Part shown: positions 10,048 through 36,021 of the stretch, piece by piece
Layout: every line of letters starts with the position of its first letter
Numbering within the stretch: position 1 is the first letter of the stretch
Assembly: GCA_048938445.1 (NCBI GenBank)
Contig: JBHLME010000033.1
Coordinates: forward strand, 1-37,346
Direction of reading: 5' to 3'
Source of the DNA: Promethearchaeota archaeon
Lineage (GTDB): Archaea > Asgardarchaeota > Lokiarchaeia > Sigyniarchaeales > SOKP01
Length of the DNA: 37,346 nt
Position numbers and translations under genes: made by a program
The notes under the pieces: model-generated
Seen by the model: only the letters and a program-made list of their open reading frames with translations
Told to the model about the DNA's origin: nothing
Databases searched by the model: none

Positions 10048-10599
10048 TTATTTTATCCTTATGGATAAAATTTTCAAAGCTAAGGTATTAAAAGCTAAAG
10101 TGACGTTTTCATTGGTTTTAGCAGAAGTCTCAAAATATTCTACATTATATTTACTAACTTTCTTTTTTATTTCATCTTCGCTTACTACTTTCTTTTTATC
10201 GCATTTATTCCCTATAATTACAAATGGTATATCTCCGGTGAGCGATGTCATTTTTTGTATCCAAAAATCGAGACTTTTAAATGATTCTTCATTGGATACA
10301 TCAAATACTACAAGTGCTCCTACTGCCTGGCTAAAATAATACTCCGTCGCAAAAAGTCTATCTTGTTGCCCCCCAATATCCCACCAATATATTTTTAATT
10401 CTTTAACATCTTTAAGATTATCTGAATCTGTAATTCCCTCTATTTTATCCATTAAATCGACTTCTTTGACCATAAAGTTAGCGCCTATTGTCTGCACGTA
10501 ATCTTCCTGGAAATTGTCATTAACATATCTATCAAGAAGGCTTGTTTTACCTACAGAGGCCTCCCCAATAATTAAACACTTGCCTCTCAGACCACTCAT
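10048..10599 (-). CDS. Rab-like small GTPase (Ras superfamily)
   Basis: G1 GEASVGKT, G2 QTIG, G3 WDIGGQ, G4 NKCD, G5 ETSAK. Confidence 0.93.
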   Translation of the reverse strand: MSGLRGKCLIIGEASVGKTSLLDRYVNDNFQEDYVQTIGANFMVKEVDLMDKIEGITDSDNLKDVKELKIYWWDIGGQQDRLFATEYYFSQAVGALVVFDVSNEESFKSLDFWIQKMTSLTGDIPFVIIGNKCDKKKVVSEDEIKKKVSKYNVEYFETSAKTNENVTLAFNTLALKILSIRIK

Positions 10600-10690: not shown

Positions 10691-11551
10691 TTATTTAAAA
10701 TTCATGATTGAACTGGTGTGTTTTTTTTTTACTTTTTGTGTCAGAGCAATAAGTTTACATTGTGAGTTAATAAAATGCCTGAATAAATGTTCATATCCAA
10801 TTACTTGTTTATCCTTTCCATTTTCTAACCATAATCCTGAAGTATATTCAGGAGCTTCAGCAATTTGATCTAAAGTTGTCAAGAGAAAATCATTATCAGT
10901 GATTAACAATCCAAAGGGTATTACTGAATCTCCTTCAATGGAATGCATTACAATGTTAATCTTTAATAATTTTTTAATTTCATCCTTTAAAGTCTCTTGA
11001 TATTTTAAAGCAACAACAATTTGAATTGCTTCATTTGAAAATTTCTTGTTCCATAAATCTTTAAATATCCAATCCGTGGTACCTTTTGAAAAATCCTCCA
11101 TTAATAAATCTGGAGTAATCACGAAAAATATTCTCTTTTCAGCCTCATTAACTAAATCCTTGATCTTTTTTCTAATCTTTTCTCTAGAACTAATAGCCCA
11201 TACACGTGGTTCTGATTCTTCTTCATCAATTTTTAAATCAGCAATCTTTTTCTCAAGGTCCATAGTTTCAGAGATTTTCTGTTTATAATCTTCTCGAATT
11301 GATTTAAAAATTCTTTCAATGGGGATAACTTGATAATTAGCTCCTCTTTTAACAGGTTCTTTTTGAATGAATCCTTTTTCAATGAGGCGATTCAACGAAT
11401 CATATACTCTTGCACGGTCAACTCCAGAATTACGGGCTATATCTGCAGGACTTAAAATTTTGTATTTACATAAAGTCAATAAGACTTTAGAATCATTTTT
11501 TGTAAATCCTAGTTCCATCAAAGATTCTTCAATGTCCGCTTCCACGTGCAA
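10691..11551 (-). CDS. TrmB-family transcriptional regulator
   Basis: LMELGFTKNDSKV...ADIARNSGVDRARVYDSLNRLIEKGFI winged-HTH, followed by a TrmB-like effector domain (VWAISSREKI...AEKRIFF). Confidence 0.9.
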   Translation of the reverse strand: MHVEADIEESLMELGFTKNDSKVLLTLCKYKILSPADIARNSGVDRARVYDSLNRLIEKGFIQKEPVKRGANYQVIPIERIFKSIREDYKQKISETMDLEKKIADLKIDEEESEPRVWAISSREKIRKKIKDLVNEAEKRIFFVITPDLLMEDFSKGTTDWIFKDLWNKKFSNEAIQIVVALKYQETLKDEIKKLLKINIVMHSIEGDSVIPFGLLITDNDFLLTTLDQIAEAPEYTSGLWLENGKDKQVIGYEHLFRHFINSQCKLIALTQKVKKKHTSSIMNFK

Positions 11552-12055
11552 TTACCCTGTTGTTTCATTTTTATTTTAATTTATTAAAAAGCTCTTAAAT
11601 TAAAATTCTAAAATATTATATATATAATTTTTTTTTTTGTAAAAAATATATGATTGTTCATTGATTTAAATGTTTTGACAAGTGAATATAAATTAAATTA
11701 TATAGTGTTGCAAAAGGGTATATTTCATCTTTTGATGGTTTTCTTTAAAATTTCACGAATTTTTCATATAAAATAACATTACAACTATATCATTAAAATT
11801 TAATTTTTTATTTATAAAAATATCTAAAACCATTTATTTAGCATTAAATAAATTATCATGAAACCAAATTCATGTCGATTTGATCATGTTTAAGTATTAA
11901 TAAAATTTTTCATATTAATACAAAAAACTCCGCAATTTATCTCGTACAATCATTAAAATATTATTTTGTCGGTTAAGGCAAATTAACGATCTGATTCCCA
12001 CCAACTGAAAAAACAGTCATGAAAATTCCGAAATATATTGATTCGAACCATAATA

Positions 12056-12063
12056 TTTATATA
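12056..12063 (+). promoter_or_regulatory. Putative TATA box of the histone gene
   Basis: TTTATATA about 80 nt upstream of the histone ATG; GGAGG SD-like motif at 12129-12133. AT-rich background makes this uncertain. Confidence 0.4.
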
Positions 12064-12142
12064 TATTTATTGTTAAGTTATACTTAATAACTAAAATTAT
12101 TCTAAAAAAAAATTAATAAAAAGTAAGTGGAGGAGTAGGAAT

Positions 12143-12409
12143 ATGGCAAAAAAGAAACCTGCTGCTGCAAAACCAGCAAAAAAGAAAGCACCAGCAGCAA
12201 AAAAAGGGGAAGGATATATTGCGAAAGCCCCAATCAGAAGGTTAATGAAGAAGGAAGGTGCTGAGTTAGTTGCTGCAGAAGCTTTAGATAAATTGATTGA
12301 TTTCTTAGAGAAAGCTGCTGCTGATGCAACAAAAGATGCAATTAAAGTTTGCAAAGCAGACAAGCGAAAAAGAGTTACTGCTTCCGATATTAGAAACGCA
12401 ACTCGATAA
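12143..12409 (+). CDS. Archaeal histone (HMf-type fold) with Lys-rich N-terminal tail
   Basis: IAKAPIRRLMKKEGAELVA.EA...L...LE........A......KRKRVTASDI aligns with the HMfB fold; preceded by MAKKKPAAAKPAKKKAPAAKKG. Confidence 0.93.
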   Translation: MAKKKPAAAKPAKKKAPAAKKGEGYIAKAPIRRLMKKEGAELVAAEALDKLIDFLEKAAADATKDAIKVCKADKRKRVTASDIRNATR

Positions 12410-12426
12410 TACCTAAATTAATGTGA

Positions 12427-12448
12427 TTTTTTTTTTATATTTTTTTTT
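12427..12448 (+). terminator. Oligo(T) archaeal terminator after the histone gene
   Basis: Two long T runs starting about 18 nt after the stop codon. Confidence 0.5.
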
Positions 12449-35916: not shown

Positions 35917-36021
35917 CGCAGATGGAGGGACTCGAACCCCCGAGCGCTCACGCGCACCGGCTTTCTCGGATAGAGAGGAATAAACTCGAAGCCGGCGTCT
36001 TACCAACTAGGCTACATCTGC
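35917..36021 (-). tRNA. tRNA-Ser(CGA) with a 22-nt intron at 37/38 (intron 35963..35984)
   Basis: Acceptor stem GCAGATG/CATCTGC, discriminator G, anticodon stem CCGGC/GCCGG, loop TT-CGA-G|intron|A, long variable arm GCGC-GTGA-GCGC, T-loop GTTCGAG; CCA not encoded. Confidence 0.93.

Follow-up and report, generated by a model that had tools for sequence, protein, structure and literature searches.

A Histone with a Polycationic N-Terminal Tail from an Uncultured Family of Lokiarchaeia, a Probable Orthologue of the HLoB Type

A contig of 37,346 nucleotides from the Asgard class Lokiarchaeia (Promethearchaeota archaeon; GenBank assembly GCA_048938445.1, contig JBHLME010000033.1), which was analyzed over its whole length and is referred to below as the window, encodes an 88-residue protein in which a histone fold follows a lysine-rich N-terminal tail. 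The evidence assembled here indicates that the gene very probably encodes a tailed Asgard histone, an orthologue of the HLoB type, with its fold placed behind a polycationic tail. This family has already been described and studied experimentally by Cho et al. (bioRxiv 10.64898/2026.07.02.735847), and the window gene is an uncharacterized orthologue within it. Asgard tailed histones bear on the origin of eukaryotic chromatin with modifiable tails, a question already addressed in cultured Lokiarchaeia and Hodarchaeales, and the window gene is a data point for that question rather than a discovery. What is added is a single-copy, syntenic tailed histone in one large uncultured Lokiarchaeial family, with a conserved likely promoter and a tail whose composition is constrained and whose length is not. 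Statements about published work refer to the portions of the cited texts drawn on here.

Results

Translation Start of the Tailed Histone Gene

The gene and its parts are located as follows.

12143..12409, forward strand: complete tailed-histone gene, 88 amino acids, ATG start and TAA stop (12407-12409), supported by the open reading frame (ORF) list, Pfam PF00808, and 574 homologues at E<=1e-3
12143..12211, forward strand: N-terminal tail, residues 1-23, MAKKKPAAAKPAKKKAPAAKKGE, all of it N-terminal of the HMfB Met1 equivalent in the ungapped phmmer register
12146..12205, forward strand: two tandem 30-nt (10-codon) units, AKKKPAAAKP and AKKKAPAAKK, found by Tandem Repeats Finder
12212..12406, forward strand: histone fold, residues 24-88, gap-free against HMfB 5-65 (from residue 28) and ending at the HMfB-65 equivalent
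12129-12133, forward strand: Shine-Dalgarno-like GGAGG, 9 nt before the ATG, with GTGGAGGA invariant in an alignment of 12 upstream sequences

The window, with a G+C content of ~30%, is contig C124 of a 4.63-Mb genome bin of 256 contigs that is 96.5% complete and 8.2% contaminated. A first reading, made from the letters of the DNA (the sequence-only reading), had placed a histone in this frame with a 22-residue tail containing nine lysines and a GGAGG motif before its ATG, and each of these features was recovered. The first 22 codons (12143-12208) read MAKKKPAAAKPAKKKAPAAKKG, with nine Lys, eight Ala, and three Pro; the tail as defined here, namely everything N-terminal of the HMfB-Met1 equivalent, has 23 residues, a net charge of +8, and no Arg. 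One contig from another sequencing run (X2) covers the whole gene with 0 differences, but this run and the possible source sample belong to one study and are thus not independent. Contigs from three runs of other studies (X3, X4, and X7) are fragments that end short of covering the tail.

Comparisons were made in two overlapping sets of relatives. A database search returned 844 candidates, 574 of them homologues at E<=1e-3, and the figures on tails derive from the 120 listed, which have 76-95 residues; the genome-locus set consists of the best 80 of 84 confirmed relatives. Counts given over 200 rows combine the 120 database rows with the 80 loci.

The sequence evidence converges on ATG 12143 as the start codon. 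GGAGG occurs no more than 20 nt upstream of the ATG in 76 of the 80 related loci, at a spacing of 7-9 nt in 73 of them and of 7-11 nt across the 76, with one at 1 nt; the four loci without it are the most distant ones (L083-L086) and carry GTGAT in its place. Among the 36 other large ORFs of the window, there is none whose first start codon, which may differ from the true start, has an exact GGAGG no more than 20 nt away, and the strong Shine-Dalgarno motif of the histone gene is exceptional in the window. No archaeal small-subunit ribosomal RNA, looked for as a check on the anti-Shine-Dalgarno sequence, was found in the 96.5%-complete bin. The protein begins with MAKK and has a K/A/P tail in 78 of the 80 loci and in 118 of the 120 listed database homologues, and ATGGC is invariant in the alignment of 12 upstream regions.

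Initiation downstream of the tail, in which case the tail would not be made, was weighed against these data. No support for it was found, the ATT at codon 26 being the sole conceivable near-cognate start. There is no in-frame ATG, GTG, or TTG between codon 1 and Met35, and a start at Met35 would destroy the fold because, in the ungapped HMfB alignment (query 28-88 to HMfB 5-65), this residue lies inside helix 1. The conserved Shine-Dalgarno motif and MAKK beginning also stand against a downstream start, as do the tail peptides from residue 2 that Cho et al. detected by tandem mass spectrometry in relatives, where the initiator Met is lost. A downstream start has almost no probability, and the start upstream of the tail assumed in the sequence-only reading is as secure as sequence evidence can make it.

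A Histone Fold with Substitutions at the Dimer-Dimer Interface

The identification as an archaeal (Asgard) histone holds up against profile and structure databases. Pfam PF00808 (CBFD_NFYB_HMF) matches residues 28-86 over profile positions 5-64 of 65 with 40.1 bits (cut-off 21.4; E 4.5e-10), and phmmer matches among chains in the Protein Data Bank (PDB) include HPhA (1ku5, 3.5e-6), the Asgard 'Archaeal histone A' (9qv6/9qv5, ~2.5e-5), HMfB (1a7w, 3.5e-5), and HMfA, the whole set spanning E 3.5e-6 to 7e-5. An AlphaFold2 monomer model contains a helix at residues 25-72, in which helices 1 and 2 are merged, and another at 80-87, with a predicted local distance difference test (pLDDT) score of 83-95 over residues 31-80; because the protein would be an obligate dimer, a monomer model tests the fold poorly.

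Residues are numbered below as in HMfB, following the ungapped alignment. R10 (R33 in the window protein), G16 (G39), R52, and K53 are kept in 200 of 200 rows of the tailed clade, and D59, which forms a pair with R52, in 198; G16 is the small residue expected at the stacking position. Other functional positions have changed. Henneman et al. 2018 (PMC6136690) list L46, H49, D59, and L62 as required for the dimer-dimer interface and noted that tailed histones tend to be substituted there. The corresponding residues of the window protein are V69, A72, D82, and N85, and the canonical set is not retained. Across the 200 rows, position 49 is never His (A in 157, T in 16, E in 9, N in 6, and other residues in 12, with V in 3 and D in 2 among the rows), and position 62 is never Leu, Ile, Val, or Met (N in 133, A in 35, K in 18, and others in 14). 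Position 19 is Leu in all 200 (L42 here), leaving the DNA-anchoring pair R10/R19 incomplete. In the five untailed paralogues encoded by this genome, His49, Asp59, and Leu/Ile62 are present and Arg19 is replaced by Met or Ile; these paralogues are also two residues longer at the C terminus, which in the tailed clade falls at the HMfB-65 equivalent in 181 of 200 rows. The absence, across the whole tailed clade, of two of the four residues regarded as needed for canonical tetramerization is new here and, taken with the conservation of the fold and the constraints on the tail, provides a testable hypothesis on particle size.

A further feature of this region is Cys70 (codon 12350-12352), at HMfB position 47, which adjoins the interface residues. 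The position is Cys in 172 of the 200 rows and Thr in 23, and it is Cys in none of the five untailed paralogues.

The interface substitutions bear on a more specific reading, which would add to the assignment as a tailed histone rather than exclude it: the protein could be a capstone-like, particle-limiting variant that caps or punctuates stacks of the untailed paralogues and thereby places tails at the ends of discrete particles. None of the 200 rows has the His49 needed for a hydrogen bond with Asp59 or a hydrophobic residue 62 for the dimer-dimer four-helix bundle, and the five untailed paralogues retain the residues concerned; the interface criteria and the tailed-histone substitutions of Henneman et al. 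point the same way. According to Stevens et al. 2020 (PMC7776873), whose modeling left tailed histones out, a hydrophobic or acidic residue 49 marks capstones, which stop oligomer extension, and this diagnostic fits the window protein. In addition, the best AlphaFold3 particle of Cho et al. combines 6 untailed with 2 tailed chains. On the other hand, capstones are lowly expressed (PMC7776873) and the HLoB type is abundant (10.64898/2026.07.02.735847), HLoB.2 is treated in the latter work as able to sit in hypernucleosome models, and residue 49 is a marker, not proof. The capstone literature, in the portions covered, proposes capstones for 'other histone variants' generally, and no proposal specific to the tailed Loki clade was found there. 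A capstone-like role is thus possible but rather unlikely.

Composition, Length, and Duplication of the Tail

In the AlphaFold2 model, residues 1-24 have no secondary structure and block-mean pLDDT values of 47-62, and the tail is predicted to be disordered. Its length is 11-30 residues (median 17) in the 120 listed homologues and 2-27 residues (median 13) in the 80 loci. A Lys-rich extension of at least 6 residues is present in 79 of these loci and of at least 11 in 75; one locus (L075) is essentially tail-less, and four have 6-8 residues. Composition is uniform among the 120 relatives (K 0.44, A 0.32, P 0.12), and an acidic residue before the junction occurs in 5 of 120 tails. Residue by residue, the tail sequences align poorly. 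The comparison of orthologues that the sequence-only reading had proposed as a check on tail conservation therefore gives a positive answer with respect to presence and composition.

The long tail of the window protein is a tandem duplication of a 10-codon unit. Tandem Repeats Finder reports a period of 30, 1.9 copies, 81% matches, and a score of 79, and the two units are identical at 23 of 30 nt and 7 of 10 amino acids; most relatives have one unit, with tails of 12-13 residues. As judged from these alignments, the presence of the tail, its MAKK beginning, and its composition are constrained, its length and exact order are not, and length shifts by gain or loss of K/A/P units of ~5-10 residues.

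Such lability could also mean that the tail is a functionless by-product, an extension of the ORF into A+T-rich DNA ('easy come, easy go') that drifts by slippage. An origin of this kind has been proposed for the tails of Asgard and bacterial nucleoid-associated proteins (PMC10919886), and the range of 2-30 residues, the recent 30-nt duplication in the window tail, and the poor alignability are in keeping with it. Against it stand the retention of the tail across the clade, the nearly invariant MAKK, and the scarcity of acidic residues, together with the modification of defined lysines in the tails of relatives (Cho et al.). Base composition is also at odds with drift: 43% of tail residues are Ala or Pro, and the tail-coding DNA is 42% G+C compared to 30% for the window. 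These G+C-rich codons run against the A+T bias of the genome and are not predicted by A+T drift, which argues against the tail as mere read-through of A+T-rich upstream DNA. A functionless by-product is very unlikely on this evidence.

The sequence-only reading had also likened KKAPAAKKG in the tail to the segment KSAPAPKKG of the H2B tail. The match at seven of nine positions is real, but it is superficial and compositional and does not amount to homology. Shuffled tails reach 7/9 in 0.9% of 20,000 trials, which is not a fair probability because the motif was chosen post hoc. Within the family, 7/9 is reached in only 6 of 120 members, with modal scores of 5-6, and the exact 9-mer is present in 3 of 120; since the commonest family tails have one unit, the H2B-matching segment arose with the lineage-specific duplication. 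The core-histone model PF00125 falls short of its cut-off (19.9 versus 26.4 bits), and no discernible homology between Asgard and eukaryotic tails is reported in PMC10919886. A tail homologous to the N-terminal tail of eukaryotic H2B is extremely improbable, being effectively refuted by the lack of conservation, and the resemblance is, on these comparisons, a convergence of composition.

Family, Spread, and Synteny

The genome bin contains six histone-fold genes. The tailed one is single-copy, and the other five encode proteins of 68-73 residues whose basic N terminus comprises at most 3-6 residues. A maximum-likelihood tree of the fold only, calculated for 25 hand-picked rows (these 6 genes, 6 from Candidatus (Ca.) Harpocratesius repetitus, 6 database homologues, and 7 other loci), divides, at a branch with support of 100/99, into 17 tailed-type and 8 untailed rows. 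Ca. Harpocratesius repetitus has three tailed paralogues, with tails of ~20, 31, and 47 residues, all within the tailed-type rows. The one with the ~47-residue tail (L088, G404:C1:3838100-3838750; 113 residues) is rich in Lys, Thr, and Asn in that segment, a composition markedly unlike that of the other tails on a shared fold, and has a long branch in the tree.

When 400 genomes of the phylum were searched, 189 gave a match at E<=1e-5. E values below ~1e-25 occurred only in family f1, that of the window, and 133 of its 134 genomes show a match of some strength; families of the same order (f3 and f4) gave 1e-17 to 1e-22 at 49-72% identity, and other classes gave generic histone-level matches only. 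A spread of the ~90%-identical form over several Asgard phyla was considered and rejected: the records labeled as Hermod-, Odin-, Hod-, and Thorarchaeota match genomes of family f1, genus g11. Four such loci (L009, L019, L020, and L036) share contig and coordinates with genomes of this genus (G200, G198, G205, and G196), and the submitters' phylum labels conflict with the grouping. By these matches, the 90%-identical form belongs to one Lokiarchaeial family, not to several phyla. A contig in a record titled Nanopelagicaceae bacterium (L064) likewise encodes a tailed histone, with 85% identity, a MAKK start, and GGAGG, and is probably a mis-binned Lokiarchaeial contig.

Gene order backs the orthology of the tailed histone. 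Among the 80 loci, a TrmB gene is present in 67, HIT in 65, DUF2299 in 63, and Ras in 61. Conservation of the fold greatly exceeds that of these neighbors: its median identity is 87.7%, versus 51-73% for the neighboring genes (73% for TrmB). The link to HLoB itself is indirect and runs through the Harpocratesius protein and a quoted epitope. When compared by eye, the HLoB.1 epitope shares 11 of its 13 positions with an 84-residue Harpocratesius protein, 8 with the window protein, and 5 with an untailed paralogue; the peptides quoted by Cho et al. (AKKKTPAKK and the HLoB.1 epitope with RKRVTAAD) fit the signature of the tailed clade. By this route, the HLoB-type tailed histones appear to be represented in an uncultured Lokiarchaeial family by a single-copy orthologue, the window gene.

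Promoter Region and Neighboring Genes

The sequences flanking the gene contain further elements.

12038..12053, forward strand: near-palindrome TTGATTCGAACCATAA just upstream of the TATA block (TGATTCGAATCA in relatives, with one mismatch in the window), from the alignment of 12 regions
12056..12063, forward strand: TATA-box-like TTTATATA, ~80 nt upstream of the ATG, inside a conserved CATAAYATTTATATAAT block
12427..12448, forward strand: two T runs (10 and 9), oligo-T terminator-like, 18 nt past the stop codon, read from the sequence
10691..11551, reverse strand: TrmB-family regulator gene, divergent from the histone gene (Pfam TrmB 1e-15)
10048-10599, reverse strand: Ras-family small GTPase gene (Pfam Ras E 9.4e-38)

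The TrmB-family and histone genes are separated by an A+T-rich spacer of 591 nt. Across all 12 aligned relatives, the CATAAYATTTATATAAT block shows little or no variation; it is likely the archaeal promoter, a role assigned from general knowledge of such promoters. In the otherwise poorly conserved spacer, invariant and near-invariant columns also cluster at the near-palindrome (n=12 upstream regions), which could be an operator, perhaps for the adjacent TrmB-type regulator, or a site proximal to the B recognition element; regulation of the histone gene by this neighbor is speculative. A genome-wide pattern search with the palindrome at no more than 2 mismatches gave 47 matches versus 19 for the reversed control, none of them beside the five other histone genes. 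Oligo-T is the termination signal for archaeal RNA polymerase, and the T runs downstream of the gene are a putative terminator on that general ground. A sigma-70 promoter scan was uninformative (10 sites versus 8.0 +/- 2.8 expected), and the three terminator-like hits that it gave are Ala-codon repeats on the minus strand within the coding region. Taken together, these features give the histone gene the appearance of a monocistronic unit whose promoter and ribosome-binding site are both strong. The conserved Shine-Dalgarno motif and TATA block are only suggestive with respect to high abundance of the window protein. A search for sequencing runs that contain the locus turned up no RNA run.

Two other features of the window may be mentioned. 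The Ras-family small GTPase is of a kind typical of Asgard genomes. At 35917-36021 on the reverse strand, a tRNA was detected by Rfam (44 bits) over a span of 105 nt and was unreported by ARAGORN; it is probably an archaeal tRNA with an intron.

Discussion

The data suggest a model in which the fold of the window protein would dimerize and bind DNA in histone-based chromatin, as expected from its fold family and relatives. The tail would project from the particle, adding nonspecific electrostatic contact with DNA and offering lysines for methylation and acetylation, and the initiator Met is probably removed (Met-Ala, as seen in relatives). In the cultured strains studied by Cho et al., the tailed family is among the most abundant proteins of the cell and co-localizes with DNA. 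Tail lysines there are methylated according to mass spectrometry, with one possible acetylation, and in vitro LoHAT2 acetylates and LoSIR2b deacetylates tail peptides; the same authors, in the text covered here, found Asgard genomes to be without readers or a complete methylation pathway. The suggestion in the sequence-only reading that the tail is a candidate substrate for lysine modification thereby gains support, from evidence on relatives (HLoB/HMpB) and not on the window protein. The genome bin also carries four SIR2-family genes (contigs C68, C237, C141, and C80) and two SET-domain genes (C168 and C75), which as candidate erasers and writers of lysine marks would be consistent with such modification but not specific to it.

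Several points weigh against this interpretation. What is said of abundance, Met removal, modification, and DNA binding is based by analogy on relatives that are 53-73% identical. The clade lacks residues deemed necessary for a canonical tetramer or hypernucleosome, and the label of an ordinary nucleosomal histone may be too simple. Tail length ranges from 2 to 30 residues across the clade, and the existence of short-tailed and tail-less relatives implies that a long tail is not essential to the function of the fold. Finally, SIR2 and SET genes are widespread, and the bin is 8% contaminated.

A broader proposal would draw these observations together. The tailed Lokiarchaeia clade may represent an abundant histone, conserved to a degree like that of H4, that has lost the tetramerization pair (His49 and hydrophobic 62) and the loop-1 Arg19 and, as a subunit, would set boundaries or define particles among untailed paralogues that form hypernucleosomes. 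Its polycationic tail would make up for the missing contact with DNA, with the dose of charge tuned by gain and loss of the 10-codon K/A/P unit. This proposal is doubtful and is put forward as speculation; if true, discrete tail-bearing nucleosome-like particles arose in Asgard archaea via a capstone route.

Comparison with Known Systems

The closest known systems are the tailed histones HLoB and HMpB of Ca. Lokiarchaeum ossiferum and Ca. Margulisarchaeum peptidiphilum, which Cho et al. distinguish from the untailed families HLoA and HMpA in cultured Loki and Hod strains. Like the window protein, they have a Lys-rich disordered tail with an (M)AKKK start and a ...KRKRVTA.D... signature at loop 2 and helix 3, unlike the untailed HLoA type, and they form a clade apart from untailed paralogues, with both kinds in one genome. 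In contrast, the window protein belongs to another family of the same order, an uncultured one, and is 53-73% identical to its same-order relatives; it is single-copy, compared to several tailed paralogues in the cultured relatives (three in the Harpocratesius record), and its C terminus reads ...DIRNATR rather than ...DVIAAE. It is known from gene sequence alone, and HLoB and HMpB from experiment.

That tails are a minority trait among archaeal histones, found in some Asgard members, agrees with the literature. Henneman et al. 2018 (PMC6136690) described eukaryote-like N-terminal tails in few archaeal histones, including Heimdallarchaeota LC_3, and short ones in Lokiarchaeota, and Schwab et al. 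2024 (PMC11390915) note that Asgard histones often have positively charged N-terminal tails. The histone sets of Lokiarchaeia and Hodarchaeales are reported to have diversified independently, and at least five conserved histone paralogue groups exist in Lokiarchaeia (PMC10919886). HA of Heimdallarchaeota/Hodarchaeales LC_3 (PMC6136690) shares with the window protein an N-terminal Lys-rich tail and a substituted His49 (H49N there, Ala here). It belongs to another Asgard class, however, and has a tail described as H4-like, in which three consecutive Arg thread the DNA gyres, rather than a K/A/P repeat with no Arg.

The canonical archaeal histones HMfB, HTkA, and HHoB (PDB 1a7w, 5t5k, and 9qv5-7) share the fold, gap-free over HMfB 5-65, with R10, G16, R52, K53, and D59 kept; the window protein differs in its 23 extra N-terminal residues and in R19->Leu, H49->Ala, L62->Asn, and T54->Arg. 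The capstones of Methanobacteriales (PMC7776873) resemble it in their non-His residue 49 (Ala72 here, which agrees with the marker) and in being a conserved, vertically inherited paralogue distinct from the bulk histones; they are untailed and lowly expressed, unlike the highly abundant relatives of the window protein.

Eukaryotic core-histone tails (H2B and H4) and the tails of this clade are alike in being disordered, net positive, Lys-based, and N-terminal, and in being methylated or acetylated, in the case of the clade in relatives. They show no sequence homology, and the tail length of the clade is not fixed. The C-terminal domain of linker histone H1 is a K/A/P-rich basic tail as well, a likeness of composition only. 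The same is true of the tail of mycobacterial HupB, a repetitive K/A/P sequence (PMC10919886). In contrast to both, the window tail is N-terminal rather than C-terminal and is carried by a histone fold, not by HU or a winged helix. By analogy, the K/A/P repeat composition suggests nonspecific electrostatic DNA binding and charge neutralization.

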